Part shown: positions 29,003 through 52,366 of the stretch, piece after piece | How positions within the stretch are numbered: the first letter of the stretch is position 1 | Layout of the letters: each line of letters begins with the position of its first letter | IMG/VR virus record: IMGVR_UViG_3300032326_000835 | Location: 1 to 52,366 of that record | Source of the DNA: a virus | Taxonomy: Duplodnaviria; Caudoviricetes | Length of the DNA stretch: 52,366 nucleotides | Strand: one strand, 5' to 3' | Translations under genes and position numbers: made by a program | The notes under the pieces: model-generated | What the model saw: the letters and a program-made list of their open reading frames with translations, nothing else | What the model was told of the DNA's origin: nothing | The model's database searches: none

Positions 29003-29003
29003 G

Positions 29004-29089: not shown

Positions 29090-29090
29090 G

Positions 29091-29163: not shown

Positions 29164-29164
29164 T

Positions 29165-29238: not shown

Positions 29239-29242
29239 ATCG

Positions 29243-29316
29243 TACATCTGGAAGGACTTGAACCTTCGGCTCTCTGCATATAAGGCAGGTACTCTAACCA
29301 ACTGAGTTACAGATGT
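29243..29316 (-). tRNA. tRNA-Ile(TAT)
   Basis: Acceptor ACATCTG/CAGATGT; loop CTTATAT. Confidence 0.85.
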
Positions 29317-29320
29317 GTAG

Positions 29321-29394
29321 TACACCAGGTAGGACTTGAACCTACGATAACCGAATTATGAGTTCGGGGCCTTAACCAACTTGGCTACTGGTGC
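29321..29394 (-). tRNA. tRNA with CAT anticodon (Met or Ile2)
   Basis: CCGAA-CTCATAA-TTCGG. Confidence 0.88.
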
Positions 29395-37325: not shown

Positions 37326-37589
37326 AGTTATCCAGTCATACGGATTTGTTGTAGGTATGCCATGTAGTTGAGAAATATGAATAGGCCAAGCATTATGATT
37401 AAGAAAGGTTTCATGGTTTATACATCACATCGTAATATTTATTTGACATAGCAAAGGCTTTCTTCTTGGTTGGCCATTCTTCTGATGAGTATTCTTGTAT
37501 GACAGCATCGTAGTATCTCCATTGGCCAGTAGCAGGATTGATCTCAACTTTTACTTTCATAGTGTTCATATCTCCATCATATCAGATAG

Positions 37590-37819
37590 TTATCCACATG
37601 TCAATACCCATAAAAATGTTAGTTATCCACAGGTTTATCCACAGATTAATCTTACTGATAATATATTTAGACATTCTAATAGTGGAGCGTTGTGGAGGAT
37701 AGTGGAGAATAGAGCGCTACCACAGATGCATCGTAATGTCAAACCGAAAAACCTTCATATCCCCAAACCTTCATAGCGGGGATTTTATCACAAACCTTCA
37801 TATCTGTCAAACCTTCATA
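37590..37819. repeat. origin-like region: DnaA boxes, AT-rich tract, iterons
   Basis: TTATCCACA at 37590, 37623, 37635; GTGGAG x3; AAACCTTCATA at 37749, 37765, 37792, 37809. Confidence 0.6.
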
Positions 37820-37994
37820 TGCATGGTTTGGGCATTATACATCGTAAACGATGGTTTGTCAAGCCCATTTGCTGCAAAAAAATCTCCCAAAACCAGGGAG
37901 AAATTGTCGATAATCGTAATGTTTTTTTAACAAACCTTTATAGAATTTAAAGAAACCAGGACATAATGGTTTGTTATTCTATAGGGGTTATTTG

Positions 37995-38261
37995 TTATAG
38001 GGTTTGGTCTTGATCCCCTGGGGTTTCGCCCTCGGCGAATTGGCCTTCGGCCTGATCACTGAGGTTATAAACTGTTCCCAGTTGCTTACCAATCTTGTTT
38101 GGATCTAGCCCCTCCAAAAAATCGGGGGTAAATGAAAAGAAGTGTTTCAAACCTACAGTATGAGTAACACCTACAAAGGTATTCCATAGGTTATCACTAA
38201 AGGTTTTATATCCTTTGGGATCATTCTTCATATAGTCTGCAAAGTGATGTCTAGGACTCAT
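37995..38261 (-). CDS. hypothetical protein, leaderless
   Basis: TGtTATAAT just before ATG. Confidence 0.5.
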   Translation of the reverse strand: MSPRHHFADYMKNDPKGYKTFSDNLWNTFVGVTHTVGLKHFFSFTPDFLEGLDPNKIGKQLGTVYNLSDQAEGQFAEGETPGDQDQTL

Positions 38262-38450
38262 AATATCATTATAACATGGTTTGACAAACCTTAAAACCTC
38301 TGGTATAAGTTCAGCAGGGGGAAAGTTTTAAGGGTTCGTAATGTCCTGGTTTGGGGATATAAAGGTTTGGATCGTAATGTCTTTTGGAAATGAGGTTTGG
38401 GGTTTGACAATTTGATAAAACTATGTCACGTGCCCTTTCGGGCCAAAAGA

Positions 38451-38711
38451 CTAGTCGTCTTCGAGTAGGTCCTCAATGCTCTCAAACCCTGTGTCCTCAG
38501 TATCCAAACCTTCAATAAATAAATCCCATGTTTCATTTATGTATTGCTCTAGTGTTGGAGTATGATTAATTACTCCCTCGGCAAATGCGAAAGCAAGTGG
38601 CAAACCTAAGTCGTTATAAATAAAGAAATCAATCCACTCATCCTCTGCTTTATAGTTAATCCATAGTTGCCCAAGGATTAGTGCCTTGTTCTCAAATGTT
38701 GTTGCTGGCAT
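38451..38711 (-). CDS. acidic hypothetical protein
   Basis: 86 aa; GAAGGAA RBS. Confidence 0.65.
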   Translation of the reverse strand: MPATTFENKALILGQLWINYKAEDEWIDFFIYNDLGLPLAFAFAEGVINHTPTLEQYINETWDLFIEGLDTEDTGFESIEDLLEDD

Positions 38712-38898
38712 AGTTTGTTCCTTCCTTAGTTTCTTTGGCTGACTCTGCTATTACCTGTAAACGATTATACACTACATAGGGCTGAGATTTTGCCATGTAT
38801 TCCCCGACCAATTCTAAATCCACTCGCAGGTCAGCAATAATGTTACCCATTTTATTGGCAATCTTTTCCTCATCTGTAATTCGTTTGCTTATTCTCAT
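38692..38898 (-). CDS. hypothetical protein
   Basis: 68 aa; GGGAG RBS. Confidence 0.6.
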   Translation of the reverse strand: MRISKRITDEEKIANKMGNIIADLRVDLELVGEYMAKSQPYVVYNRLQVIAESAKETKEGTNYASNNI

Positions 38899-38991
38899 GG
38901 TTCTCCCTTATGTTAATTGTATCAAAAAGTGGGGGAAAGAGCAAGCCCCACGCCTGCCCTTCCCACCCGATTAGCCTAGGTGACCCAATAC

Positions 38992-39345
38992 CTAGACTAG
39001 CGCAGGGCAATAAGCACCCATAAATTTATCAAAGGGCACTGAGACTCTATCAGTAACAGTATTAGTAGTGAAGTCGACTAGGACCGTAAACTCACCTAGT
39101 TCTAAGGACCCACCCTCGTTAGCAATTGCATGGATTCCAAACCCTGTCTCTTCTAGAATGCTATCCTGCATAAGATAACTAATGATCATCCGTGTTCCAT
39201 AGGATGAATCACCTAGTCTAGGTTTTGCATGCTGCAGCGCCATGGCCAGGTCCCGCTGCCATTCAGTCTCTCCCCAGTGGCTGTACAAAACTACCATAGG
39301 CCCCTTGTCAGAGTCCTTGAATACAAAATTAATCCGTGCTCCCAT
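38992..39345 (-). CDS. hypothetical phage protein (LYSHWG motif)
   Basis: TAATG coupling; 117 aa. Confidence 0.65.
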   Translation of the reverse strand: MGARINFVFKDSDKGPMVVLYSHWGETEWQRDLAMALQHAKPRLGDSSYGTRMIISYLMQDSILEETGFGIHAIANEGGSLELGEFTVLVDFTTNTVTDRVSVPFDKFMGAYCPALV

Positions 39346-39683
39346 TATTCTTGCTCCTCATCTAAGTCGCCTTCAAAGTCGATAACTACTTTAACAATTC
39401 GTCCGTCCTCGTTATACTTAACATAAACAGGATAATATCCGTCACCATATCCTGTGTTAAATACTACTGCACTACCAGTGCCTAAAACACCAGCACTAGC
39501 AGAAAGTGTCATAGCACTAGCGCCATGATAAGAGTAATCTCCAGCCTTACCCTCTAACTCCCACTCCTCGCCTTCATTTGTTTTCCATTGGTCAAGGTAG
39601 CAGGGGTCACCCACCATTGCTTGACCTGAGTCAACTGCAAAGGAACCTACTAATTCAAGTTCATCTATTACTATTTGTGTCAT
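39345..39683 (-). CDS. DUF4241-like protein
   Basis: FAVDSG..GDPCY..GYGDGYYPVY. Confidence 0.6.
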   Translation of the reverse strand: MTQIVIDELELVGSFAVDSGQAMVGDPCYLDQWKTNEGEEWELEGKAGDYSYHGASAMTLSASAGVLGTGSAVVFNTGYGDGYYPVYVKYNEDGRIVKVVIDFEGDLDEEQE

Positions 39684-40132
39684 TTCTTATCCAATCCTAC
39701 TAGGGTCATTTGTTCTTGTTCTAATTTTAGCATTTCTTCCTCAGTTATGCAAACTGGACACCGCTCATACTCATAGTATCTTTCATTAATTAGTTGGCCA
39801 TCATCTTCAATCTCTGCCCCGCAACCTTCGCAGTAATACCAATATGAAGATACTTTGATTTGAATAGTAGTATTATCAGGGAAAGGAACCTCAGTGATAA
39901 AGTATCCTATTCGATTAACGAATCCCCATCCACTCCAAATGTAGGACCCACCGTCGTCGCCATCCCCATACATCCAGATATTTTTTTCAGGGGATTGCTT
40001 AACAAACTCATACTCATCACCATAGGTTTCAAACATCAAACCATCGAATGAGGCATTGTTGTCTATATGGTTAGTGATTGGCTTATAGGTCTCAACAAAG
40101 TCGTCAAAGTCCATTTCAATAAATGTGTCCAT
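39680..40132 (-). CDS. hypothetical protein with C-terminal Zn ribbon
   Basis: VNRIGYFITE; CEGC..CPVC. Confidence 0.65.
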   Translation of the reverse strand: MDTFIEMDFDDFVETYKPITNHIDNNASFDGLMFETYGDEYEFVKQSPEKNIWMYGDGDDGGSYIWSGWGFVNRIGYFITEVPFPDNTTIQIKVSSYWYYCEGCGAEIEDDGQLINERYYEYERCPVCITEEEMLKLEQEQMTLVGLDKK

Positions 40133-40426
40133 GTGGGGTTCTTTCTGTTAGGGTATATTATAAGTATAGCGGTTTGATATTAATCTGTCAACTTCATTCG
40201 CACTAGGTCATAAGCGTCAATGGCACCAGCACAGTAATCATCTAGTTCATGATCATTTTCTAACTGATACTGCTCACGCTTTTCTGTGAGGTCAGCAATG
40301 CGTTCCTCTACAAATTTACGCAGGGTATCAATAACATCTAGTGAAGCACATTCTCCACAGTATGAGTTGTAGTCCTCTTCCTCTGTATAGGGGATAGAGC
40401 AACCACAACTGTTACACCATGATTCA

Positions 40427-40711
40427 TCACGCATTCCCATTTTTTCTCCTATCTGAAATAGCAAAGGCTAGTTGGTATGTTAATCCATATACCGCTGTAA
40501 GTGCGTCCATGTAACCTTCGTTATATAAACGCTGTACGGTATCTTCATAGTCCTCATCTGAACCTAGTTCATTAGAGTTCTCTAGGAGAGGAACCAATTC
40601 CTTCTCACATTCATACATCATATTCTTAAGTTCTCCATGAAGGATATCTGTTCCTGATTCGCCTAGGTCTACTAGGGTCTGTAGTCTTGGTTCTAGTTGT
40701 GTTGTTTCCAT
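40427..40711 (-). CDS. hypothetical protein, leaderless
   Basis: ATG is 6 nt after the -10 of a TGTCAG promoter. Confidence 0.65.
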   Translation of the reverse strand: METTQLEPRLQTLVDLGESGTDILHGELKNMMYECEKELVPLLENSNELGSDEDYEDTVQRLYNEGYMDALTAVYGLTYQLAFAISDRRKNGNA

Positions 40712-40717
40712 TACTCT

Positions 40718-40739
40718 ATCATACCCTCTGCCACTGACA
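40718..40739 (-). promoter_or_regulatory. PafBC-type promoter 1
   Basis: TGTCAG-TGGCAGAGGG-TATGAT. Confidence 0.7.
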
Positions 40740-41432
40740 AAAGGTGACGGGTAGCCAATACCTGTCCGTTTAAATGAATAACAGAATCACGGTCACCGTC
40801 GGGCAATCTATCATAGTCTTGTTCTAGACTAATCAAATGTATCTTTATATATTCAATGAACTCATTCATTACATATTCTCCCTTACAAGATTATTACTAA
40901 CTAACTCATCAATTACAACTGCGTTGCCATAGTGTTGGACGACCTGCTCAAACTTGTCCTCACCCCAACCACCCCACTCTTCTTCAATCTCATCAATCTC
41001 GTTTTGGTTTAGTTGTTCAGTGTCCAGAATAAAAAGCGGGGAGCGAGAGTCAAACTCCCACCAATCCCCATTGACATTGCTAATGTAAATAGTCATTAGT
41101 TATCCTCGCACTCATGGGCTTCAATAAACGACGGCATATCAATTAACTGTAAGTCACAATCTCCACAGTAAGGAACATAAACTACATTAGTTGTCATCTT
41201 CTTCCTCATCTTCATCTTCTGAGGTTTGTGTTACATCAATTGAATAGACTTCACCTGAGAAAGCATAATCTTCATAGTGCCAGCCAAGTTCTTCTGCGGC
41301 TTGTTCGTCTTCTGCTTCAACTTCGTAGTTATACTCTACGATTACTTTAATGTCATATGTTGGCATTAGGGTCTCCTTTTTCTTTATATATTAATTATAG
41401 GGGTTGGTGTTGATTTTTACAACTTGTGAGGG

Positions 41433-41448
41433 TGTGATATCAGTCACA
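41433..41448. promoter_or_regulatory. CRP-family box
   Basis: TGTGA-TATCAG-TCACA upstream of a TTGTAA-N17-TATAAT promoter (- strand). Confidence 0.6.
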
Positions 41449-42171
41449 TCATCTGGGCTGGTCTTGACTGTTGCATCTTCCCAGCCTAAAAGGATCAATT
41501 CATCTGGGTAGTCACAGACACAGGTAGGAGCCTTTTTAAAGTCTTGGGTAGTTACCTCAAAGAGGGTATCACAATGGGTACAGATAAGATTATACTTAAG
41601 CCAAGTAGTCATTAGTCAAAATACCCTTCTGCCCATAGTCCTTGTAGAAAATCTTCTGCTAGTTTTAGTCCTTCTTTATCTTCAGGTGTAGTTACATATT
41701 TGTATGCATTTTGCACAGCAACAACCATGAGTTCTTGGTCATATACTTCATAACCTAGCATTACTCACCTTCCTCAAACTCATGTCCAATAATATCAATG
41801 TGGTCAGGTTCTGTTCCCTGAATTTCTTCAAGCATTAGGGTTTGGGCTTCAACCAGGGTATCAGCCTCAATCTCCCTGTTCCAATAGTTATTTACTCTCT
41901 CATGATAATCAATACTGAATTTCATTACTCTCCCTGATTAACTAGATAGGCACGGACTTCTTCAAGGGTATTAATTGATTCCTCACACATTACGATTAAG
42001 TCTTCTCTAGTCATTATTCTCCCCAATACTTGACAATAGTTTCCATGGTAATATGTAGGTGGCAGTCACAGGGTTCTCCACCCATGTTCTCCTCAAATTC
42101 AAAGTGCGATAGGTTGTCCTCATAAATTTCCATTACGAGTTCTGATATGGTGTATGGCTTGTATTGTGTGG

Positions 42172-42597
42172 TCATGCTTCTATCATAACACTAGGGTCTG
42201 ACATTTTGGATTGCCATAGGTCACAGTTTCTATCTAATCTATCACCAAAGACACGGATGTAGTCTGCGATATCTTCTGTTTGATCTGTTAGACATTCTTT
42301 GACTGTATCTACTGATATAAAGACTCTTCCATTCCATAGACCCATTTGGCCAATGTTTGTTGGTACCTCTAGGCAACCATATGTATCTTGTTCCCAGCCA
42401 ACACCTTCTGAGCAAACCAAGGCATACTTGTTGTCGCCAAATACATTTTTTTCATCCAGGGTAACGAATAGTAAATTGTCTACAGTACATTCACTAAAGT
42501 CGCTACTATACTGTAGATTGTAAATTCCATTAGCGATTACTGCTAACTTCTTGCCGTCAATGATTTGTCCTATATAGCCTTTTGATCGATTTCTCAT
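42172..42597 (-). CDS. hypothetical protein
   Basis: AAGGAA RBS; TTGATA-N17-TATACT promoter. Confidence 0.65.
   Translation of the reverse strand: MRNRSKGYIGQIIDGKKLAVIANGIYNLQYSSDFSECTVDNLLFVTLDEKNVFGDNKYALVCSEGVGWEQDTYGCLEVPTNIGQMGLWNGRVFISVDTVKECLTDQTEDIADYIRVFGDRLDRNCDLWQSKMSDPSVMIEA
42182..42203 (-). promoter_or_regulatory. PafBC-type promoter 2
   Basis: TGTCAG-ACCCTAGTGT-TATGAT, ATG 6 nt later. Confidence 0.7.
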
Positions 42598-42799
42598 GGG
42601 GTTCCTTTGTTAGTGGGTATATATCAAGTATAGCCGAAACCTGGGAAAATATCAAGTCTGTCGTAAAGAATTTTTGGTTTGACATTTTGGGGAAAAGGTT
42701 TGATGATCGTAAAGTTTATTTTGTTTGACATTTTTATGTCCGATATGTCTGGTTTGGTCCACGTGCGATTTTTTATGCATTGTGCTGCATATTTATTTG

Positions 42800-42873
42800 C
42801 GAAGCGTACGGGACTTGAACCCGTGATCTCTACCGTGACAGGGTAGCGCATTAACCAACTATGCTAACGCTCC
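42800..42873 (-). tRNA. tRNA-Asp(GTC)
   Basis: GGAGCGT/ACGCTTC acceptor; CTACC-CTGTCAC-GGTAG; TTCAAGT. Confidence 0.92.
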
Positions 42874-42878
42874 ATGCG

Positions 42879-42904
42879 AGGCAGTTTTAATTCATGCCTA
42901 GGAA
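42879..42904 (-). ncRNA. repeated pseudoknot element copy 3
   Basis: TTC-CTAGGCAT-GAA-TTAAAAC-TGCCT. Confidence 0.6.
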
Positions 42905-42910
42905 ATTGTA

Positions 42911-43933
42911 TCATGCGAGAGACATTACATTCTGCACAACTTTTAGCAGACGATTTTTCTCTGCGTTAATTGCAGGGTCAAAGCCTGATGCTGATGCAAG
43001 GATTGATTCGTTAGAACCACCACGAGCAGAGCGATACCAATCAAGGCGCTCAGTAAGTGCATTGAACGCACCCCAAGCATTACCAGCAATCATGCCATTG
43101 AATTCGCCAGTGTAAATATCGTTGATTACATCAACTTTATTTTCCCACTTCTTGCTTGAACCCTTAGCATCTTTTTCTGGCTTAGGATATGCAGCAAGAA
43201 TGATGTCGTTGAATTGCTTAGCATTGACTTCCTTCTCGAACATAGCCTTAGCCATGATGTCGAATTCGTCCATGTATGCATTAGCAAGACCAAGAGTCTC
43301 ACGAGCAATCTGCACCTTACCATTGGCGGTTTGAGTGTGGCGAATCTTGAAAGATTGCTTGATGCCCTTATTTTTCTTACGACCTACGCCACCAAGAGCA
43401 AGGTTAAGAGTATTAGCGCACACAACACGAACAGGTGTTATGCTTGCTTGAATGGCAATAGAACCATCGTGTGATGTGTTGATAAGTAGATAAGTTTTAA
43501 CCTTATCACTTACGCCGTTAGGGTCTAGGATTGTTTCACGCTCTAGTGCAAGAGCACCGAATACAACACGACCACCCTTGATTGAGCCAGCGGTCTCCCA
43601 ACGACCACCACCGTCTAGGATATTATCACCGAATGAGAATAAATCTTCATTCTGCAATGGGTGATAACGCTCACCAACGATGCCAAGAACATCTGTCTGT
43701 GTGTTATCGGTAGGATTTGTTCGCAAGACATATTGGTATGCCTTGTCGCTTGTTAGATGTGTAGGGGTTTCCAAATCTTCCAGACGAACATTCCAACCAT
43801 TAAGATTTGCTGCGGACAACATTTCTGCGGTTGTTTTTTCTTCTGTGAATACGGTTCCCAATCCATGCCAAGCAGGTTCACGGAAAGATGCGAATGATGT
43901 TTTTCCGTTTTGTGTTTCTAGGTCATGTGCCAT
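42911..43933 (-). CDS. DUF932 / TIGR03299 family protein
   Basis: Start MAHDLE; PAWHGLG, ETAGSIKGG, NTSHDGS, TPVRVVCANT. Confidence 0.88.
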   Translation of the reverse strand: MAHDLETQNGKTSFASFREPAWHGLGTVFTEEKTTAEMLSAANLNGWNVRLEDLETPTHLTSDKAYQYVLRTNPTDNTQTDVLGIVGERYHPLQNEDLFSFGDNILDGGGRWETAGSIKGGRVVFGALALERETILDPNGVSDKVKTYLLINTSHDGSIAIQASITPVRVVCANTLNLALGGVGRKKNKGIKQSFKIRHTQTANGKVQIARETLGLANAYMDEFDIMAKAMFEKEVNAKQFNDIILAAYPKPEKDAKGSSKKWENKVDVINDIYTGEFNGMIAGNAWGAFNALTERLDWYRSARGGSNESILASASGFDPAINAEKNRLLKVVQNVMSLA

Positions 43934-43964
43934 GAGTTTTCTCTTTTCTGTTGTTGTTAATTTA

Positions 43965-44110
43965 AGTATACACCGACCCACTGACAAATGCAAATCGGGA
44001 TAGTTAAACAGGGGATAAATCGGACATTCCTTAATGTGATTAAATTCACATGATCGTAAAGGCGTGTCGTAACTTATCCACAAGTTATCCACAGGCCCAC
44101 GTGCAATTTT
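43965..44110 (-). promoter_or_regulatory. regulatory module: PafBC-type promoter 3, CRP box, GACAC motif, 2 DnaA boxes, CACGTG
   Basis: Promoter 43965-43986; TGTGA-N6-TCACA 44035; GGCGTGTCG 44061; TTATCCACA 44074, 44085; CACGTG 44098. Confidence 0.75.
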
Positions 44111-44127
44111 TGCAGGAAAATAAAAAG

Positions 44128-44157
44128 TGAGCAGTTTACATGGCCATGCTCAGGGCC
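44128..44157 (-). ncRNA. repeated pseudoknot element copy 4
   Basis: GGCC-CTGAGCAT-GGCC-ATGTAAAC-TGCTCA. Confidence 0.65.
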
Positions 44158-44203
44158 CTCACCTAGTTTAGAGACATTCGGCATGTCTATTAGTAGCCCC
44201 CTA

Positions 44204-44635
44204 CTAAAAATCAATCCTGTCTACACTTGAAGAAAGCCAAGTAATATTATCAGAATTATATGATACAGATTCAAAATCAATATCATTTACAATTGATTCA
44301 ACATCCTCATCGTGAGGTACCTGCAGTGTTAAGTTATAAGTTACGGTAACCTCAACTTCAACTTCCTTGATTAATTCAAAGCCACAGATTTCTGCAATCT
44401 CATTTGCTTGGTCCTCTGTGATTCCACCGTCAGAAAGTTCTTTCATTGTCCACTCGTGCATTGCGTCACGCATTGACTGTGTTGCATTCTGTGCTTTGTA
44501 GACATTCTGTGACATCTCTGAAGAGCGCTCCTGCAATGACAGGATTAATGCATCTTTTCTTTGAAGTGATTCCCTAAATGATTCAATCTGATTATTAAGG
44601 AATTCTGTTGTTGCATTTGTTACGGTTTGGTCCAT
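44204..44635 (-). CDS. coiled-coil hypothetical protein
   Basis: 143 aa; AAAGAGG RBS. Confidence 0.65.
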   Translation of the reverse strand: MDQTVTNATTEFLNNQIESFRESLQRKDALILSLQERSSEMSQNVYKAQNATQSMRDAMHEWTMKELSDGGITEDQANEIAEICGFELIKEVEVEVTVTYNLTLQVPHDEDVESIVNDIDFESVSYNSDNITWLSSSVDRIDF

Positions 44636-44665
44636 GGGGGCCTCTTTCTATTGTTGGTTTACTTA

Positions 44666-44687
44666 AGTATACTACTGGCCACTGACA
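44666..44687 (-). promoter_or_regulatory. PafBC-type promoter 4
   Basis: TGTCAG-TGGCCAGTAG-TATACT. Confidence 0.7.
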
Positions 44688-44708
44688 ATTGTCAAGGACC
44701 CTTGCGGG

Positions 44709-44735
44709 GAGCCTTTTCCCTACATGCTCAGGTAG
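44709..44735 (-). ncRNA. repeated pseudoknot element copy 5
   Basis: CTAC-CTGAGCAT-GTAG-GGAAAAG-GCTC. Confidence 0.6.
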
Positions 44736-44843
44736 TATGGGTTCTTTCAGTCCCCCAATGAACTGTGCTCTATAGTATTTCTGTGATCGCCCTAATCAGC
44801 CTGGCGAATTGGAGTGGGGCTTTTACACCCCACCCAACCTCAT

Positions 44844-45269
44844 TTAGAGATAACGAGCCACCGCATTGTATGTGGAAGTATTTACAACTTCCTCATCTGT
44901 CATTTTGAGGATACGAATTGCGTTCGTGATTTCCTCTTTCATTTCCTTATAGGTATGAGTATGAATAACCTCAAAGTCCTTTTCAGGTTCAGCAGGGAAC
45001 TCATTTTCATTGGCTACTACAATATCAAAATCAACATTGAGATTGTTATTCCAAGAACGATAGTTAGTGCGAAGGTTGATTGCCTTTGAGAAATTAGCAA
45101 TAGCCCACTTACCAATTTCTGTTTTCCATGCTTCATATGCGATTAGGTGCTTTCGTTCGTTTTCACCTTGTGTTGCGTAGTCCATCTCTAGTTTTGCTAG
45201 TGATGCTTCTAGTCCTGCGATTACTCGTTGAGTAGGGATTTTTACTGAGATTGCTTTGCCTCTTGCCAT
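44844..45269 (-). CDS. hypothetical protein
   Basis: 141 aa; followed by GTGGGG/CCCCAC hairpin. Confidence 0.7.
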   Translation of the reverse strand: MARGKAISVKIPTQRVIAGLEASLAKLEMDYATQGENERKHLIAYEAWKTEIGKWAIANFSKAINLRTNYRSWNNNLNVDFDIVVANENEFPAEPEKDFEVIHTHTYKEMKEEITNAIRILKMTDEEVVNTSTYNAVARYL

Positions 45270-45311
45270 TTGTTTTCTCTTTTCTGTTGTGGGGTGTTAG
45301 TTGGGGGTTTG

Positions 45312-45341
45312 TGAGCCTTTTGACAACTTGCTCAGGTTGTC
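45312..45341 (-). ncRNA. repeated pseudoknot element copy 6
   Basis: GACAAC-CTGAGCAA-GTTGTC-AAAAG-GCTCA. Confidence 0.65.
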
Positions 45342-45405
45342 CCACTCTATTTATTTAGACACGCATTTCTGTGGGGCGTGTTTGGTTTTGGCGTTATTGC
45401 CAAAC

Positions 45406-45570
45406 TTACTTGGCTGTCCAAGTTGTGTAACGGGTTGCACCTGCTACATCTAACTTAACACGAACATTACCATTTGCCTGTGGTGTGATTTCTGTGATGA
45501 TACCACTTACCTTTGACTTTTGTGTTGTGTAGGTATCGCCTACCTTGTATGTTGCTGTTGCTACTGCCAT
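45406..45570 (-). CDS. small SH3-like beta protein (not in ORF track)
   Basis: MAVATATYKVGDTYTTQKSKVSGII..; own TTGACA-N18-TATACT promoter. Confidence 0.65.
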   Translation of the reverse strand: MAVATATYKVGDTYTTQKSKVSGIITEITPQANGNVRVKLDVAGATRYTTWTAK

Positions 45571-45675
45571 TTTTTTCTCTTTTCTGTTTAGGGGTTGTTA
45601 TTTGGTTATACCTAAGTATAACATTTTGTAAATAAAAATGTCAAATCGAAACCTGACATTTCTCACATATTGAGA

Positions 45676-45846
45676 TTACTTAGATGTCTTGACCATAGCC
45701 AAGCGACGAGAGCCGTTTGCTAGGACAAGTGAAACTCTAGTAACCTTATTAGACATTGGTGTAAAACCTGCGATACGACCTGTAACGCCTGTCTTGCTTG
45801 TTGTAAATAAATCACCAATTTGGTAAGTGTATCCATGAAGTGTCAT
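45676..45846 (-). CDS. small SH3-like beta protein, paralog of the previous gene
   Basis: TYQIGDLFTTSKTGVTGRI; AAAGG RBS. Confidence 0.65.
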   Translation of the reverse strand: MTLHGYTYQIGDLFTTSKTGVTGRIAGFTPMSNKVTRVSLVLANGSRRLAMVKTSK

Positions 45847-46083
45847 TTGGGTCTTGCCTTTCTTTGTGGGGGTTAATTGCTTATAGTATAATTTTAGCAG
45901 AAAAATGTCATAAATGCTAATTCTAGGGGGGTTTTGGGGTGTGTTCTTAAACACATCTTAAAGGCGTGTCGCAACTTGACAAATTAAGTTTTGCCGACGT
46001 GGATCCCTGCAATTTTTATTGGTGGAAAAATAAAAGTACTATGCACCAAATTAAAAATATTATTTGCAGGGAATTCATTTATC

Positions 46084-46818
46084 TCATTTCTTAGTTGCAG
46101 AAAAAATTATGTCACTCTTAGAGTATACACACAATGAGCAAGAAACGCAAGCGCTACCTTTTTCTGATATTAGTTTAATTTGTTTATTATTTTCAGGACA
46201 TTTAGCAGCAGGCTTACCAATCATTTCTTTTACATCGGCCTGGCCAATTGCAAAATTCTTAGCAAGATATGCCATGCGAACCCCGCTATTAATTTTTAAA
46301 TCAACGGCAGTTTTAACATTCTCACTATCTGCAGAAAAATACAATGATAAATTAGATACATCCTTAAGGATAAGCGCTGCAGACTTAACTCGTGTGTATA
46401 CCCAAAATTGAATGTCAGGATTATTTTCAATTACAACTTTCCAGGCATTAGTATATGTATCATTAAAAAAGTCTCCGTCCCAGTGGATACGGAACAACTT
46501 AGGGGCATTTTTCTTTTCACAATCTGCAATAAACTCATCAATCATTTCAGAAAGTAGCATGAGCATAGTTAGACCGTCTGCGTCTTTTAGCAGGGACCAA
46601 TTGTGTAGTAGGTTAACCTTTACGGTAGGGAAGACCTTTTCCAATTTGCCTGCATAGCAAACACTCTCGCAGACACTCGTAGCGCCAGGACATGAATAAG
46701 CCTTTCCTGCAGGTAGGCCAAAGGTATTTGCGATACTTGCTTGTTTTCCATTAGGGGTGACGGCATTAGCAACCTTTCTATCTTTTGATCTTTTTAGTTT
46801 AAGTGTATTAGTAGTCAA
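46084..46818 (-). CDS. Gp88-like Fe-S (radical-SAM-like) phage protein
   Basis: CPGATSVCESVCYA, FRIHWDGDF, CVSCSLC. Confidence 0.75.
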   Translation of the reverse strand: MTTNTLKLKRSKDRKVANAVTPNGKQASIANTFGLPAGKAYSCPGATSVCESVCYAGKLEKVFPTVKVNLLHNWSLLKDADGLTMLMLLSEMIDEFIADCEKKNAPKLFRIHWDGDFFNDTYTNAWKVVIENNPDIQFWVYTRVKSAALILKDVSNLSLYFSADSENVKTAVDLKINSGVRMAYLAKNFAIGQADVKEMIGKPAAKCPENNKQIKLISEKGSACVSCSLCVYSKSDIIFSATKK

Positions 46819-47015
46819 GGCCTAGGCTCATTTCTAATGCAATGTCTTCATTATACATTGCGGACATTTCTTCTAGTAAGCAATGGGTGCATTTTTCTTC
46901 ATATGCGTCAACCGCATTTTCTTTACATTCAGGGCAGGTAGTTGCATAGTATTCGTCATAGAACTCATCTGATATATTTCCCATGGGGGCTATTCTCCTT
47001 TTTGTTGATATTTTA

Positions 47016-47037
47016 ATTGTAGCATTTCGGACTGACA
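47016..47037 (-). promoter_or_regulatory. PafBC-type promoter 5
   Basis: TGTCAG-TCCGAAATGC-TACAAT. Confidence 0.7.
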
Positions 47038-47148
47038 TTTTCTACCCTTGCGAGAGTAGGCCTTTTTAGAGGGAACGGCAGAGGCAGCATTGCTACGGCG
47101 TAATTCCATAAGCCTGCGTAATTCCTCTGGTGTTTTTTTCATATAATA

Positions 47149-47220
47149 ATCTTAGCATACAGGGGAAAAAATATCAACTTCTTAAATGTGATAAATCTCA
47201 CAAGGGCGGGACGTGCATTT
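47149..47220 (-). promoter_or_regulatory. regulatory module: sigmaA promoter, CRP box, GACGTGC
   Basis: TTGATA-N17-TAAGAT; TGTGA-TAAATC-TCACA 47187-47202. Confidence 0.65.
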
Positions 47221-47496
47221 CTGTGCGGGGAAGCACACAAAAATACTTTTAACTATTCTTCTTCTTCAATAAAAACATATAACTTAAATACATGTTCATA
47301 GTTGCAAATAAAAACATCTTCCTCACCATAGTCATTACGATAAGTAATTGTGTAATTATCTCCAGTAGCATCATCTTCAATTGATATTACATCAACAATA
47401 ACACCTTCAATCTCTACAAGATCATTTTCCATTAACTGGCTAGGTGTTAGTAGGTCTGCATATACAAGTTCCATGCTGTTTATTGTATCAGACATT

Positions 47497-47781
47497 CTAA
47501 TCCTCCCAATCGGGTAGCCAAAACGATAGGTGGTGTTGGTCTACAATCGCTCTTGCAGGTGCTTGAGTTTCTCCACGATAGAGAATCTGAAAGTCACCAA
47601 CCTTTGGCATATCAATCATGCGCTCATAGTCCTCATCATAGTAAGCGTCAATAGCCTCGATACAAGGTTGCACCATTTCTGCGGGGACTGGAGGGTAGTG
47701 ATTACCCTTTAGGTGATAAAGAATCTGAGTTTCTAAATCCAAGACTGTATCCTGAATTCCTAACGCTGTAACTGCTCCCAT
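47497..47781 (-). CDS. hypothetical phage protein
   Basis: HLKGNHYPPVP motif; in compact operon 47253-48517. Confidence 0.65.
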   Translation of the reverse strand: MGAVTALGIQDTVLDLETQILYHLKGNHYPPVPAEMVQPCIEAIDAYYDEDYERMIDMPKVGDFQILYRGETQAPARAIVDQHHLSFWLPDWED

Positions 47782-48549
47782 ATTATTTCACACTCACATT
47801 TCCATTACGATAGAAGGTCTTGGTATACATTTTACCCGTAGGGTCTGACAAGTTATATGTTGCATATTCCTTAGCATCGCCATAGTCCACACACTTATTC
47901 CATGCAGTTACTATTTCTAGCATATCTGCGGTGCGTGTTGTTGATACAAGTTCGCCGTCATAGGCGATAGTAAGTGAGTAGTTATATTCCATTAGTCGTT
48001 CTCCTTAGTAGTAAATAGTGCGCCTTCATTAAGCAAGCCTAACTCTAAATTAAATAGTTCATCGCTATTAGCCTTAGACAAGTCTATCCAACCTGCGCCA
48101 TCGTTGTCAATTCTAAATATCTCTACATATCCCATTAGTGTTGTTCCTCGCAATTCTCTGAATAGTTAAACTCACAATAGTAGCAACCCATAGTTTCTCC
48201 ATGAGCCTTGCATACATATTTAAATTGTAATTCATCGCAACACAATAGTTGCTCATCTTTAATTAAATAGAATTCGTTTTGGTCAATATAGGTATCTATC
48301 ATTATGCACCAACCTTTACTGCAACTGTGCGATAAGTTTTGCGACCCCAATTATTGTAACCGCTATTGGGTGCAACCTCTACAAGATAGGTTTCGCAACC
48401 CTCATACCAAACTGCGTGAGGGTGAGGCTCTGCACTTACAATTTCACCTTGCAAGGTGCGTGATGAGTAATTTGTTCCCACTAGAAGGGACTGGACTGTA
48501 TATACATTTGCTGACATAGTGTCACCGCTTTCTTTTTCTTGATAATTCT

Positions 48550-48571
48550 ATCTTAGCATAGGGGACTGACA
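48550..48571 (-). promoter_or_regulatory. PafBC-type promoter 6
   Basis: TGTCAG-TCCCCTATGC-TAAGAT. Confidence 0.7.
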
Positions 48572-48632
48572 TTTTCGGTTAGCCCCGCCGTAGCGGATAG
48601 ACTTTCTTTTATTTATTTTTTCTTACTATGTA

Positions 48633-48790
48633 AGTCTAGCCTATCAGACATAAATTATCAACTTACTAGCCAGTAAATCCAAATAGTGAGACGCTCAAGT
48701 CGTGTGATTAATCTCACAAAACTTCGGGCGTGTCGTACACAGCCTCTTAAACACTTGTGGATAAACCTGTGGATAAGTCCCACGTCCAAT
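48633..48790 (-). promoter_or_regulatory. regulatory module: sigmaA promoter, CRP box, GACAC motif, 2 DnaA boxes, CACGT
   Basis: CRP 48703-48718; GGCGTGTCG 48727; TGTGGATAA 48756, 48768; CACGT 48781. Confidence 0.75.
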
Positions 48791-48801
48791 TTTTGAAGTG
48801 T

Positions 48802-48828
48802 TGAGCAGTTTTAGATCTTGCTCAGGAT
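48802..48828 (-). ncRNA. repeated pseudoknot element copy 7
   Basis: ATC-CTGAGCAA-GAT-CTAAAAC-TGCTCA. Confidence 0.65.
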
Positions 48829-49605
48829 TTTTTTTATTCAGTAATTATCTTTGTTACACGCTTCAAAAAATTTAGTTGCATCAAATCTTTTGTTGTCTGC
48901 TTGAAACATACTAGCAAACTCATCAACTAAATCGTGAAAAGTAAATTCATCACCGATTAAATCTTTAAATGATGAAAGAATTTCAGCAGTTGCCACATAG
49001 TCTTTGCGTGTCATCATTATTCGGCCACCTTTAAAAGTGCCCAAGAGCCACCTTCGTTAATTTCATCTAGTGCTGGCTGAATTCTTGGTGCAACCATTTC
49101 TTTTAGCATACCTTCAAGAAAAACAATTTGCATTTCACTAGGAAGTTGAAGCAGGCGCAGAGCAGTTGGGTGAGTTTCATCAACCTCGGTTACGAATTTT
49201 AGAGAGTGTTCAATTTTTACCATTTTTATTTATTTCCTATTCTTTTAGTTGTTGAATTGTTGTAGGTCTTGGTCAATACCAAAATCGCAGTTGCAAGTTT
49301 CTACATCGTAGTCATTTCCGTTACCGAAAAAAATTAGTCCTGTTGAATTGCATTCATCGCAGGGGATAGATAAGACGGAGTTTATCATTAGAGAACCGCC
49401 TTACCTCTAAGAGTGCCACTAACGCCAAGAGCGTCACAAGCAACTTTAACGGATACACCAACTGGGAGTTGTGTTGGGTAAGTTGAGAGGAATTGAGCAA
49501 CCGCACCACGAGAAGCAAGGTTGATTTTTTTTGTAGAACCATTAAAGGTTTCTAGTGTTATAGTGTAAGTCATTGGGTGACTTCCTTTCGTTTGTTTATA
49601 TTACT

Positions 49606-49830
49606 ATTCTAGCAGAGGGGTCTGACATTTTGGGCACTTATTTGCTTAGGCTCACTGTGATACTGGTCACATTTATTTGCTAAGGCTCATTGCTTTATTA
49701 GTCATTATTTAATTGTATAAGAGAATCTTATCACAAAAATATTAAAAAGTCAAGCCCAAACACGGCGTGTCGTAAGTGATTAATCTCACATTAGTTGTAC
49801 ACAGCCTGTGGATAACTTTTGCCACGTTCA
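49606..49830 (-). promoter_or_regulatory. regulatory module: PafBC-type promoter 7, two CRP boxes, GACAC motif, DnaA box, CACGT
   Basis: Promoter 49606-49627; CRP 49656, 49775; GGCGTGTCG 49764; TGTGGATAA 49807; CACGT 49823. Confidence 0.75.
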
Positions 49831-50666
49831 AAATTATTCGCCTTTCACGAATAAATAGGATCCAATAAAAAAAGAAATAAAAGAAAACCAAAACAATGCA
49901 TTACCACTTGCAAAAAAAGTTTGATAAAAATTATTCATTAGTTACCCCATTCTAAAAAATAAAATAAAAAATTAATTAAAATGTTTGCGTGTGATGTTAG
50001 CATTTCAATTGTTGCTAAATCTTTTGCTTCATTTATCCAATCAAGATATTGAAATATGTCTGCAAATAGTGAGTTTATGTTCATTTATTGTTCACTCACC
50101 TTTTCTAATTCGTTGCGAAATGATTCCGCAGTTTCATGTTGTTGTTTCAATGTGAGTGAAGCCCACAAGTAACCCATTAGGTAAGCGTTGCCACTATCTA
50201 CATCGCCACGAATATCTTGTGACATAGATTTTACATATTGAAGTAATTGCATATCAGTCATTAGTTGTAACTCCTTTTACATTCTGAACATAGGTAATTT
50301 AATTTGCAATAGCAACCTGCATATACAGGTTCTGGATTTTCATAGTAGTCATCATAGTAATTCATAGATTATCCCCAACATTCTGAACAAGTAGCGGTTA
50401 AAAGTTTTGCATCTGCGAGAGCAACTTCAACAGTAGGCTCTTCGCAAATTTGACAAGATAAAGTTATCATTTCTTTTTGCATTAGTTTTCACACTCACAT
50501 TCTGAGGCAGATAGGTCAAAGTCGCAATATTGGCAACCTTGAAATTCAAAGTGTTCATCGCAATAAATTGCGGTTTGCATTTCTTCGCAACACAAGAATT
50601 GTTTTGTGCCACGCAAGAAAACTTTTGTTAAAGGCATATGAGAAAGAATAAGTGTAGGTGTACTCA

Positions 50667-50852
50667 TTAGTTAGACACCTTCCACTTAGACCATGGAGAA
50701 AATGGGTTTTCAATATCAGCCCATCTTTCAATGTTCTGTTCACACTCTGTACAGAATGTAAATTGTTCATCAAATGCCATGTTGCAGACAGTTGAGATAG
50801 CGGACATTTGAGGTGTATGCATTTCGCATACTGTAGTTTTTAGTGAAGTCAT
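50667..50852 (-). CDS. small Zn-binding protein (paralog of 51663-51845)
   Basis: CxxH..TFCTECEQNIE..WSKWKVS. Confidence 0.65.
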   Translation of the reverse strand: MTSLKTTVCEMHTPQMSAISTVCNMAFDEQFTFCTECEQNIERWADIENPFSPWSKWKVSN

Positions 50853-50907
50853 TTTAGACTTCCTTTCTTTAAGGGGCTTACTTCTTTTTCAACCTTCTAT
50901 ATATAGA

Positions 50908-51055
50908 AGTATAACAGAGGGGTCTGACATCTACTGGAGAGTAATCATACCAAAACGGACATTTTGAAATGTGACTTACATCATGTGGATAACTTGAGCG
51001 TAAATCGTAGGTGTGATGTGCATCATGTGGATAACTTTTTGGCACGTGCAAAAAT
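50908..51055 (-). promoter_or_regulatory. regulatory module: PafBC-type promoter 8, CRP-like/DnaA overlaps, CACGTGC
   Basis: Promoter 50908-50929; TGTGA-N6-TCA overlapping TGTGGATAA at 50984 and 51026; CACGTGC 51043. Confidence 0.75.
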
Positions 51056-51662
51056 TGCAGAGTGTGAATCTGCAAGATTTGTTTTTATTTATTTATAGTC
51101 TTTAAAAATTTCTTCTAAAGTTTTAATTTGATCATTTGTTAAATGGTCAATGTTGATTGCATTTGCAAATCCGAAAATATCTTTTTCCATTTACTGAATC
51201 TCCTCTACATGAAAAGCGTTAAACTTTTCAATTTCGTTTTCGCTAAGTGGATAGAGCGATTTTTGTAGAGCGAATACCGCTCTCATTTCATCTTCTGCCT
51301 CTACAGCATAAGAAATAAGCACATTATATTTAGTCATTTATTTGACTCCTTTATATAGAAAATCCCAAGCCTTACGGCACATTAAAATTGACTCACAGTT
51401 ATCGCAACAGATAACACCATGAGGGTTAAGGTCTACATCATAGACATCAACAGAGGCGAAAGATTTGCCACATACAGAGGCAAGATTTACGAAACTACTC
51501 ATTTATTTACTCCTTCAAATAGTTCTTTACACTTATTAGGATTTTCCCAATAAGGCTGACCCTCATGATAGAGGGCGGGGGCTAATACAACCTGACCGCA
51601 GGGGCATAAGTTCATCATGCCTTTGGGGTAATTGTTTACCGTAGGAAAGCGAGTCCAAATAC

Positions 51663-51845
51663 TCATTGAGACACCTTCCATTCTGACCAACCACTTAGTC
51701 GGTCTGAGTCATAGTCCATATACCATGACTCTATATTATTTTCACATTCCATGCAGAATGTATAAGCCACATCATTGTGAAATTCAACCGCTGGCTTGAA
51801 CGGCTTATGAGTAACGCATATTGCGTTAGTTGTTAGTGTAGTCAT
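51663..51845 (-). CDS. small Zn-binding protein
   Basis: CxxH..TFCMECENNIE..WSEWKVS; AAAGGTGG RBS. Confidence 0.65.
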   Translation of the reverse strand: MTTLTTNAICVTHKPFKPAVEFHNDVAYTFCMECENNIESWYMDYDSDRLSGWSEWKVSQ

Positions 51846-51900
51846 ATTGACCACCTTTCTTTAGCGGATTTCTTTACCGCTTGTTTTTCTTTATATGATA

Positions 51901-52134
51901 ATTATAGCAGGGGGGTCTGACATCTACTAGCCAGTAACTATGCTAAAACGGACATTTTGATTTGTGAATCACATCACATTTTCGGGGGAATTATAACAAT
52001 AAAGTAACAATACTAACATTAACGGCGTGTCGATTTGACAAGGTCGACGTGCGATCAGTGTGGTGTATATCACATAGAAAATGTCCGATTTGTCCGTGTC
52101 TAAACTTGACTTTTTGAGATTTCTGTGCTATACT
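51901..52134. promoter_or_regulatory. divergent regulatory module: PafBC-type promoter 9 (-) and sigmaA promoter (+)
   Basis: TGTCAG-N10-TATAAT 51901-51922; CRP 51963, 52059; GGCGTGTCG 52024; GACGTGC 52046; TTGACT-N17-TATACT near 52106. Confidence 0.72.
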
Positions 52135-52250
52135 TCTAGTATAAGAAAAATTAAATAAGAATAAATCCTAGTGAGCCTTAGAAATAAGCAAATAACCTAG
52201 GTCAAGGAAAAAGATAACACAAGGTTATCAAAAAAAGAAAGGAGTTCAAT

Positions 52251-52366
52251 ATGAACTCACTAAATGAATACAATGAAAGTATCCGCAAGGATATCGCCCT
52301 CGATTTCGGATTAGAGGCAGGTGGCTATGCCCCTAGCCCTAAGATGATACCTATACGCATAGCACA
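52251..52366 (+). CDS. hypothetical protein, 3' truncated
   Basis: GAAAGGAG RBS, then ATGAACTCA.. open to window end. Confidence 0.55.
   Translation, partial: MNSLNEYNESIRKDIALDFGLEAGGYAPSPKMIPIRIA

Follow-up and report, generated by a model that had tools for sequence, protein, structure and literature searches.

The viral contig IMGVR_UViG_3300032326_000835 (IMG/VR; Duplodnaviria, Caudoviricetes), analysed here over its whole length of 52,366 nt and referred to as the window, carries between 38.4 and 52.1 kb an arm of small minus-strand genes punctuated by nine intergenic blocks, each marked by the tetranucleotide ACGT. These blocks are probably compound intergenic control regions, in which terminator, operator and promoter are combined, and they would divide an early arm into about nine separately controlled minus-strand units. 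A first-pass annotation of the same DNA had offered two readings. The attractive one, an integron-like array of expression cassettes with ACGT as the junction, is corrected here. The other, regulatory signals in the first-injected DNA, fits better, the arm being homologous to the direct terminal repeat in BE1 phages of Streptomyces.

The window (~37% G+C) is about half of a ~115-kb whiB-encoding actinophage. Its completeness is estimated by CheckV at 48%, and it is colinear with positions 27,355–79,903 of G001, one of three relatives (G001–G003, 115–119 kb) that CheckV rates 100% complete. Related stretches in one viral collection number 374, of which 80 loci (L006–L085) were compared; these loci are the relatives referred to below.

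Anatomy of the nine blocks

All genes of the arm lie on the minus strand, 47 open reading frames (ORFs) of 25–340 aa being called in 14 kb. The blocks are 110–400 nt long and have a fixed polarity. Each begins 6–100 nt past the previous stop codon, or after a tRNA, and along the minus strand there follow a stem-loop (in most blocks), the GC-rich ACGT boundary, DnaA boxes, GGCGTGTCG, a CRP-type box and ATGTCCG, a predicted promoter, a ribosome-binding site and an ATG (Table 1). The boundary consensus in this phage group is SSSS-ACGT-SC-AAATTTT (149 distinct sites), and in blocks 3, 6, 7 and 8 DnaA boxes stand 5–9 nt from it. Blocks 1 and 2 share the boundary and use another vocabulary (GGTTTGACA, CGTAA(T/A)G and ATGTCCG). 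The one-sidedness of the motifs described in the first-pass annotation, left of ACGT and toward the minus-strand promoter, holds with the exception of block 9, a divergent region with right-side motifs too. The description of each interval as an operon of microproteins was partly right: the intervals also hold tRNA-Asp, a 340-aa DUF932 gene and a 244-aa GP88-family gene, and at least five extra promoter-like sites lie inside them.

Promoters and terminators were called from sequence patterns only. Nine sites in the blocks and intergenic regions of the arm match (A/T)TGTCAG-N10-TAnnnT, each directly upstream of a ribosome-binding site and ATG and mostly with TGn before the -10 element, and the six best sigma-70-type matches (11–12 of 12) are all on the minus strand. 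For terminator-like sites the count is 26, with 10.6 +/- 4.1 expected. A hairpin lies between stop codon and boundary in blocks 1, 3–6 and 8, and that of block 2 follows a tRNA; promoter-like site and hairpin occur together in eight of the nine blocks, block 7 having no hairpin between stop codon and boundary. Stem-loops of one conserved-stem family, GAGC(A/C)..GCTC, occur four times in the arm and in 203 distinct copies in the relatives. A scan against Rfam at E <= 1 found only tRNA and no known RNA family in the blocks.

Three other assignments for these elements were rejected. A phage sigma factor dedicated to the TGTCAG promoters was sought, and no Sigma70_r4 domain was found in any of four records (the window and the three complete relatives). 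The ACGT palindrome does not make a terminator hairpin: a 10-nt palindrome gives a stem of at most 3 bp, and folds place ACGT outside the main hairpins. Nor does ACGT serve as the -10 or start of a plus-strand promoter following GGCGTGTCG-TTGACA, given that TTGACA and ACGT stand 6 nt apart in block 9 and 15 nt apart in block 4, with no TAnnnT.

Further observations concern individual sites. In many relatives a strong predicted promoter has GGCGTGTCG in the same orientation, 1–4 nt upstream of its -35 element TTGAC(T/A) (compare 52093–52134 in the window), so that GGCGTGTCG may act as an activator site close to the promoter or as a UP-like site; in the arm blocks, GGCGTGTCG stands without a usable -10. 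Block 7 contains two tandem 35-nt repeats (49635–49704, 77% identical) between its promoter and the upstream sites, and one of them contains a CRP-type box. A 50-aa, highly basic ORF at 46990–47142 (minus strand) starts 6 nt after a TAAGAT -10-like element without a ribosome-binding site and may correspond to a leaderless message; the predicted promoter of the next gene is located within its 3' end.

Enriched motifs and avoided words

The perfect DnaA box TTATCCACA occurs 10 times in the window, against 0.68 +/- 0.72 expected, and the CRP-type sequence TGTGA-N6-TCACA six times, against 0.14 expected. ATGTCCG is found eight times (1.97 expected). GGCGTGTCG occurs five times in the forward (plus-strand) direction and never in reverse, with a reversed-sequence control of 0/0. 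All these motifs lie in or beside the blocks except three DnaA boxes near 37.6 kb and the ATGTCCG copies at 36422, 46861 and 50801.

ACGT itself is scarce. It occurs 16 times in 52,366 nt; shuffles that preserve dinucleotides give 69.4 +/- 8.4, and a Markov model predicts 81.8. AGCT, CCGG and CGCG are absent from the window, with Markov expectations of 157, 22 and 20. Of the 38.4–52.1 kb stretch the nine intergenic blocks account for 15.4%; they contain all nine of its ACGT, and none falls in the ~47 ORFs there; by our own arithmetic the chance of this is 0.154^9, about 5e-8. In every one of these nine cases ACGT occupies the same edge of its block. The remaining seven copies in the window are located at 4.7–24.5 kb.

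The nine sites listed in the first-pass annotation are thus all present where it placed them, and its boundary pattern needs a qualification. Written as SACGTKC on the plus strand, the pattern matches seven of them (38427, 42760, 44098, 47210, 49823, 51043 and 52046), the other two being GACGTGG at 45996 and CACGTCC at 48781, and its overall count is unremarkable (8 matches versus 6.04 +/- 2.48 expected).

The word avoidance extends over the 80 relatives, with 0.81 ACGT, 0.24 AGCT, 0.05 CCGG and 0.01 CGCG per kb. In G001 the sole 13 AGCT sites all lie in the final 3 kb (116135–118875), which suggests that this AGCT-bearing end is foreign or a misjoined contig end.

DnaA and CRP-type boxes

The relatives contain 434 perfect DnaA boxes. 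Neighbouring boxes within 60 nt of each other have the same orientation in 60 of 61 distinct pairs, and their centres are spaced 11–13, 21, 32–34, 41–45 or 54–56 nt apart, about one to five helical turns. In the three complete relatives the boxes lie mostly in this arm (8/9, 8/12 and 7/8). Phasing and orientation together argue for cooperative DnaA binding, which we infer from pairs that are not phylogenetically independent. Pairs with gaps of 2–3 nt occur at 44074/44085, 48756/48768 and 37623/37635, and 15 distinct pairs with 2–4 nt gaps were found in the relatives. Box-bound DnaA can stop a transcribing polymerase, and TGTGA-N6-TCACA is also the actinobacterial Crp/GlxR consensus; the two kinds of site would fit an insulating or tuning role.

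Directly left of the block array lies a repeat-rich, mostly non-coding region (37560–38450) with DnaA boxes at 37590, 37623 and 37635. It holds four iteron-like copies of AAACCTTCATAT (at most one mismatch, 37749–37820) and one inverted copy at 38357. Three of the five plus-strand copies of CGTAATGTC are found in it, the others being at 36148 and 36590, and inverted repeats of 21–30 nt flank an 88-aa gene at 37995–38261. This region is a candidate replication origin or T5-like stop/repeat region.

The boundary element across relatives

The first-pass annotation had named a lack of positional conservation among the results that would refute its reading; the motif is in fact conserved in position. 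ACGT is kept in 134 of 239 spanning alignments, with retention at sites 1 to 9 of 17/22, 20/27, 12/45, 20/36, 15/44, 19/32, 6/16, 9/12 and 12/17, respectively. G001 has no ACGT at all between 30 and 65 kb, and all nine copies in its arm (66.7–79.7 kb) stand at block boundaries, in the same places as in the window. In the arm of the closest relative (L018), 9 of 10 ACGT are at boundaries, and in G002 8 of 13.

Boundaries lacking ACGT carry another GC cluster in its place. Over 105 such cases the GC fraction was 0.58, versus 0.37 and 0.40 in the flanks; the replacements include CCCCGAGG, GGCCGG, GCTAGG and GGTTCGAA, and AAATTTT again follows. CCGG shows the same placement. The 80 loci hold 55 distinct CCGG sites; a block motif stands no more than 70 nt to the left of 47 of them (85%), and 4 (7%) lie in ORFs, versus 11% and 68% for random positions. 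Since other GC clusters stand where ACGT is missing, and CCGG survives almost only there, ACGT is one lineage's form of a GC-rich boundary cluster, under a constraint that overrides the word avoidance. Purged restriction-type words that survive only at operon boundaries, with flanks evolving in concert, are an unusually clean sign of a constrained cis-element.

The concerted evolution of the flanks is seen in the 3 nt on the right-hand side of ACGT, which are identical in 28.3% of within-genome pairs versus 13.2% of pairs between genomes (maximum of 500 permutations, 19.5%). The preferred boundary is ACGTGC in the window genome and GGGACGTCCC in G002. This is concerted evolution of the flanks inside each genome, driven by sequence exchange among blocks or by co-evolution with a reader.

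Palindromy is not a general property of the boundary: 26 of 186 pure G/C clusters are 6-bp palindromes, versus 31.0 +/- 4.4 in shuffles. Some excess is seen only among ACGT-type sites, of which 86 of 149 are 6-bp palindromes, versus roughly 34% expected from flank frequencies by our own arithmetic. A ParB/KorB-type global regulator acting on a CACGTG core was rejected, no ParB_N domain being found in any of the four records. Taken together, the boundary cluster withstands restriction-type avoidance and in most cases has CG at its centre; in the ACGT lineages it is often palindromic. An A(n)T(n) tract follows it, and its copies within a genome are homogenised. A sequence-specific protein, of phage or host, would be the simplest reader of the cluster.

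Gene-content changes and recombination

No tyrosine recombinase (Phage_integrase, PF00589) was found in the window or the three complete relatives (0/4 records), the control genomes being positive in 14 of 14 cases, and no serine recombinase (Resolvase, PF00239) was found in the same four records. The first-pass annotation, which saw no recombinase and proposed a search of the rest of the genome, was right as regards site-specific enzymes. The window does encode a UvsX/RecA-like general recombinase.

The arm is colinear in the 80 relatives, with gene-sized gaps. Chained alignments gave 963 gaps, and breakpoints were taken as BLAST alignment ends, which are good to ~10–20 nt. The first-pass annotation had proposed to test whether gene-content breakpoints map to the ACGT core. 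Of 1367 breakpoint ends, only 65 (4.8%) come within 25 nt of an ACGT, versus 3.2% expected; the share at that distance or less from a gene start or stop is 57.1%, versus 23.5% expected, and 20.4% fall in blocks, versus 15.4% expected. Most of the 87 clean events in which a segment is absent from a relative are losses of single genes at gene boundaries.

One class of event is cassette-sized. In 8 of these 87 events, at eight loci, exactly 49.82–51.04 kb is gone, from ACGT site 7 to site 8. The loci without the cassette keep one hybrid block, whose junction falls within ~30 nt common to blocks 7 and 8 (DnaA box, boundary and A/T tract), namely TGTGGATAACTTTT(T)G-ACGT-AAAATT. In addition, the promoter-proximal halves of blocks 8 and 9 are ~80% identical, and the first genes after them (50667..50852, minus strand, and 51663–51845) are paralogs with 43% identity (E = 7e-12), which points to a tandem duplication of promoter and first gene. 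Blocks may thus occasionally serve as homology for general recombination, with one cassette indel and one tandem duplication.

The phage and its relatives

The window encodes a DnaE-like polymerase, the UvsX-like recombinase, a large terminase subunit and a carbamoyltransferase, together with eight tRNA genes. A whiB-family gene is present in all four records, the window and the three complete relatives, and this marks the phage as an actinophage. Its closest cultured relatives, as judged from the polymerase and the 340-aa DUF932 protein, are Streptomyces phages of ~130 kb with 50–55% amino-acid identity; a megablast search with 3.2 kb of the arm gave no match among cultured phages. IMG/VR classifies the window and G001–G003 as linear, without end repeats. 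Near-identical DNA is present in lake-water metagenomes of 14 studies, in 20 data sets that all consist of contigs and among which none is listed as RNA. We read the phage as probably a lytic freshwater actinophage, with a host placed no closer than 'an actinobacterium'. A search of cellular genomes with whiB gave close matches only on short contigs, in bins labelled Acidimicrobiaceae, Chitinophagaceae and Saccharibacteria; these contigs were taken as mis-binned phage DNA, and a host assignment was therefore dropped. The literature, searched with supplementary files excluded (those of PMC10914622 may list the group), yielded, for the blocks or their motifs in phages, only a preprint on T5 and papers of a general kind on actinophages with whiB, and no description of these blocks.

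Family scans covered the larger proteins, most of which gave no match. The tRNA genes for Arg, Ser, Glu, Gly, Ile and Met form a cluster at 28929–29394 (minus strand), and the lone tRNA-Asp stands between blocks 2 and 3. Directly right of the arm, a cytochrome P450 gene (E = 8e-57; L094:1256–2440, plus strand, corresponding to ~80.6–81.7 kb of G001) lies alongside a GlcNAc-type glycosyltransferase gene. The carbamoyltransferase is encoded at 17663–19084, and weaker matches were obtained to sulfotransferases (35543–36142, under the Pfam cut-off) and to the 2OG-Fe(II) oxygenase and endonuclease V families (32893–34320). Auxiliary or DNA-modification functions are possible for this set.

Table 1. 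Coordinates of the blocks and other features of the window. Promoters and hairpins are pattern-based predictions; single positions are those of the motif or of ACGT.
Feature	Coordinates	Strand	Boundary	Hairpin or 3' context	Upstream motifs	Predicted promoter	Remarks
UvsX/RecA-like general recombinase	3089-4105
whiB-family gene	22929-23210	+					93 aa
Block 1	38262..38450	-	TGTCACGTGCC, ACGT 38428-38431	GCCC-GAAA-GGGC, adjoining the boundary, directly past the stop of gene 38451-38711	GGTTTGACA, CGTAATGTC	TTGTCA-16-TATTAT, 38287-38260
Recurrent single-gene indels	40130-40440, 42180-42610, 46790-47010, 48140-48300, 49240-49410
Block 2	42598..42798	-	CCACGTGCG, ACGT 42761	Boundary ACGT 35 nt past 3' end of tRNA-Asp	ATGTCCGATATGTC (42736), GGTTTGACA	TTGATA-17-TATACT, 42655-42627
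tRNA-Asp (GTC)	42799..42873	-					In arm
DUF932 gene	42911..43933	-					340 aa from ATG with ribosome-binding site; 52.6% identity to NootNoot gp003 (terminal repeat)
Block 3	43934..44203	-	GGCCCACGTGC, ACGT 44099	Terminator hairpin TGAGCA..TGCTCA with T-run, 44129-44151	DnaA boxes 44074, 44085; GGCGTGTCG 44061; CRP-type box 44035; ATGTCCG 44021	TTGTCAG-N10-TATACT, 43987-43965
Stem-loop family GAGC(A/C)..GCTC, two further copies	44709-44729, 45313-45333	-					ACGT-free intergenic regions of the arm
Block 4	45847..46083	-	CCGACGTGG, ACGT 45997	Long hairpin CCCTGCAA..TTGCAGGG	GGCGTGTCG 45963, then TTGACA	Promoter-like sites, 45920-45883
GP88-family gene	46084..46818	-					244 aa; 50.6% identity to NootNoot gp008
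Block 5	47143..47252	-	GGGACGTGC, ACGT 47211	GTGTGC..GCACA(G)	CRP-type box 47187	TTGATA-17-TAAGAT, 47177-47149
Block 6	48518..48837	-	CCCACGTCC, ACGT 48782	TGAGCAG..TGCTCAGG, 48803-48823; T8 run on + strand	DnaA boxes 48756, 48768; GGCGTGTCG 48727; CRP-type box 48703	ATGTCAG-N10-TAAGAT, 48572-48550
Block 7	49574..49833	-	GCCACGTTC, ACGT 49824	Boundary ACGT 6 nt past stop at 49834, no hairpin between	DnaA box 49807; near-CRP box; GGCGTGTCG 49764; second CRP-type box 49656	ATGTCAG-N10-TAGAAT, 49628-49606
Cassette	49834..51044	-					Seven genes (34-61 aa) and block 8
Block 8	50853..51088	-	GGCACGTGC, ACGT 51044	Bidirectional terminator hairpin TTGCAGAG..CTGCAA, 51055-51075	DnaA boxes 51026, 50984 (42 nt apart); ATGTCCG 50956	ATGTCAG-N10-TATACT, 50930-50908
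Block 9	51846..52251	both	TCGACGTGC, ACGT 52047		Minus-strand side: ATGTCCG 51949; CRP-type box 51963. Also GGCGTGTCG 52024-TTGACA; ATGTCCGATTTGTCCG 52081	Minus strand: ATGTCAG-N10-TATAAT, 51923-51901. Plus strand: TTGACT-17-TATACT, 52106-52134	Divergent control region; plus-strand promoter for the gene starting at 52252

Discussion

The reading that we consider probable is that of compound control regions. In each block the previous unit would end, usually at a stem-loop, several of which belong to one conserved-stem family. A GC-rich boundary cluster, here (C/G)ACGT(G/C)C, would then be followed by an A(n)T(n) tract and by operator-like upstream sites: DnaA boxes that share one orientation and are helically phased, GGCGTGTCG, CRP/GlxR-type TGTGA-N6-TCACA and ATGTCCG. 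One or two putative housekeeping-sigma-type promoters of the form (A/T)TGTCAG-N10-TAnnnT would drive the small genes, each led by its ribosome-binding site. The tuning or insulation of these early promoters might fall to DnaA and a CRP-family protein of the host, perhaps joined by a factor from the phage. ACGT is no recombination junction but the local form of a boundary element, constrained enough that ACGT (and CCGG in relatives) is kept where the genome has purged both. With a UvsX-like recombinase at hand, the repeated blocks would offer homology for general recombination, leading to the one cassette loss or gain and the one tandem duplication. On this reading the blocks amount to a ready map of predicted early transcription units, with host DnaA and a CRP-family regulator as candidate inputs to early expression, in a large group of freshwater actinophages with streamlined hosts.

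Several observations weigh against control regions of this kind. DnaA and CRP boxes are wholly missing from the Streptomyces phage NootNoot, and the labels 'DnaA' and 'CRP' follow from identity to literature consensus sequences, for a host placed no closer than an actinobacterium. Boundary and promoter are separated by anything from ~34 to 210 nt, an odd spread for one operator. The order of CRP box and GGCGTGTCG varies among blocks, and DnaA boxes can point either toward the boundary or away from it. Promoter-like matches overall (63, versus 49.9 +/- 7.6 in shuffles) are not clearly above expectation; on the transcribed strand a T-run is missing from several hairpins, and in one case it is found on the other strand instead (blocks 5 and 6). 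Pure G/C forms of the boundary cluster are no more palindromic than shuffled sequence. Finally, more distant relatives often have ACGT in ORFs (295 of 502 in their arms), so boundary exclusivity holds only in lineages with strong ACGT avoidance.

Two rival explanations centre on recombination. That they are mobile regulatory cassettes resembling the PeSLs of T4, terminator-promoter modules used as portable homology to insert, delete, duplicate or swap early cassettes, possibly via small circles, is in our view unlikely. It would account for the cassette 49834–51044 that is gone from eight loci with its junction in the ~30-nt segment common to blocks 7 and 8, for the tandem duplication of blocks 8 and 9 with their first genes, for the homogenised boundary flanks and for the recurrence of the conserved-stem stem-loops (four in the arm, 203 distinct in relatives), and both the UvsX-like recombinase of the phage and the T4 precedent, as set out in the available portions of PMC2839356 and PMC4122927, are in its favour. 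Yet two blocks were used in only 8 of the 87 clean absences, the other recurrent classes being mostly single-gene indels, breakpoints are barely enriched in blocks (20.4% versus 15.4%) or at ACGT, and the arm is largely colinear in the 80 relatives. Assembled contigs of mixed strains from four data sets gave no circle or junction evidence; the joints listed for them mostly connect copies of the repeated hairpin or stem from diverged relatives. An integron-like array, in which a site-specific recombinase captures and shuffles cassettes at the ACGT core, has become scarcely credible and is largely refuted. The regular punctuation by a short, often palindromic core, and an indel that spans core to core, are what made it attractive. 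However, tyrosine and serine recombinases are lacking in all four records while the controls were positive, every unit is headed by a promoter-like site of its own, next to which come a ribosome-binding site and ATG, the core measures 8–10 nt with no attC-type structured site, and breakpoints do not map to the core; the core-to-core indel itself lies within ~30 nt of plain homology.

The remaining rivals give the DnaA boxes or the boundary a role other than transcriptional control. T5-like entry signals are quite unlikely: here the arm would enter first, paired DnaA boxes would hold or pace the DNA on membrane-bound DnaA, and ACGT or CCGG would be programmed targets of a restriction-like nuclease or nickase, or shielded sites. 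Such a scheme draws on the homology of the arm to a long direct terminal repeat (PMC5764925), on same-orientation DnaA pairs 2–3 nt apart like those reported for T5 in the available part of a preprint (10.1101/866236, where the role is itself a hypothesis), on the persistence at boundaries of words purged elsewhere and on the adjacent repeat-rich untranslated region (37.56–38.45 kb) with three DnaA boxes and inverted repeats. It sits poorly with DnaA boxes spread over six promoter regions in place of one stop signal, with the non-palindromic boundary clusters of many relatives (e.g. CCCCGAGG) and with a NootNoot terminal repeat devoid of DnaA boxes; physical ends, terminal repeat, nicks and two-step entry are all hypothetical for this phage. 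A related speculation, rather unlikely in our judgement, is that ACGT and CCGG are kept at operon boundaries for a sequence-specific protein (a nickase, a restriction-like nuclease or a shielding or insulating factor) whose specificity drifts with its sites in each lineage, and that, together with the phased DnaA boxes, this would split the terminal-repeat DNA that enters first into units to be cut, held or silenced singly. If true, the scheme would give actinophages a novel way of controlling genome entry or early timing, akin in spirit to the T5 proposal. It is improbable that the boxes form a decoy array which, multiplied by phage replication, titrates host DnaA and Crp and so shuts down host replication initiation and catabolite control, promoter proximity being secondary. 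Ten perfect DnaA and six perfect CRP-type boxes in 15 kb, helical phasing as in DnaA-oligomer sites and confinement of the boxes to one arm in complete relatives would suit a decoy, but titration needs no fixed place and polarity in promoter regions, and box numbers per genome are modest. Highly improbable, lastly, is a set of DnaA-dependent unwinding elements or replication origins. The succession of DnaA boxes, GC cluster (within 9 nt) and A(n)T(n) tract in blocks 3, 6, 7 and 8 does resemble the bacterial basal unwinding unit. Against this, DnaA boxes point either way relative to the GC cluster, no DnaA-trio-like run of triplets is visible on reading the sequence, blocks 1, 2, 4, 5 and 9 have a boundary without an adjacent perfect DnaA box, and nine origins in 14 kb are implausible.

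Comparison with known systems

The arm resembles an integron attC array in its one-directional small genes punctuated by a recurring site and differs from it in having no integrase, promoter-like sites of its own, no attC-like structure and breakpoints that lie elsewhere. The T4-type PeSLs, as described in the available portions of PMC2839356 and PMC4122927, are likewise repeated terminator/promoter modules upstream of small genes without named function, in a plastic early region, and are used at times as homology for the deletion, insertion or duplication of cassettes. In contrast, the present blocks belong to another lineage, a whiB-encoding actinophage, most indels bypass them, and those portions do not mention for PeSLs a GC-rich boundary or DnaA, CRP, GGCGTGTCG or ATGTCCG sites.

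The layout also recalls the module for host takeover that Bacillus phage SPO1 carries in its terminal redundancy (PMC6873191, from the parts available): a 12–14-kb arm in, or homologous to, a long terminal repeat, with about two to four dozen small genes in several operons that have their own strong promoters and ribosome-binding sites (here predicted). The likeness is in layout only, the same parts of PMC6873191 mentioning neither host DnaA or CRP boxes nor a boundary element. With T5, according to the available text of preprint 10.1101/866236, the arm shares perfect same-orientation DnaA pairs 2–3 nt apart in DNA of the terminal-repeat type that is rich in repeats and palindromes. Those T5 boxes belong to the injection stop region, where their role is a hypothesis; all eight stand together there as a block in a long untranslated stretch, whereas here the boxes are split among promoter regions.

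A homologous counterpart is found in Streptomyces phage NootNoot of cluster BE1 (NC_042009.1), whose direct terminal repeat measures 10,787 bp (PMC5764925). Homologs of the DUF932 and GP88 proteins (52.6% and 50.6% identity) lie there at 1.4–5.2 kb, inside the terminal repeat, in the same order and on the same strand, among minus-strand small genes with gaps of 100–270 nt. The differences are that NootNoot is without DnaA or CRP boxes, that it shows no avoidance of ACGT or CCGG and that only 2 of 47 arm proteins match. By eye, NootNoot shares the TGTC-N-TAnnnT promoter spacing and GC-rich, CCGG-bearing boundary clusters beside terminators. The arm is accordingly the putative counterpart of a terminal-repeat early region, of the general host-takeover kind known from SPO1 and T5. 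The 14 kb at the start of NootNoot, within which the repeat lies, are enriched in ATGTCCG (12 copies versus 2.0). ATGTCCG stands beside the GC-rich boundary both there (L103, 2428–10164) and in blocks 2, 3, 8 and 9 of the window, some copies forming ATGTCCG-NN-TTGTCCG, direct repeats 9 nt apart. This motif looks like a cis-element kept across the phage family despite protein identities of ~50% and very different G+C.

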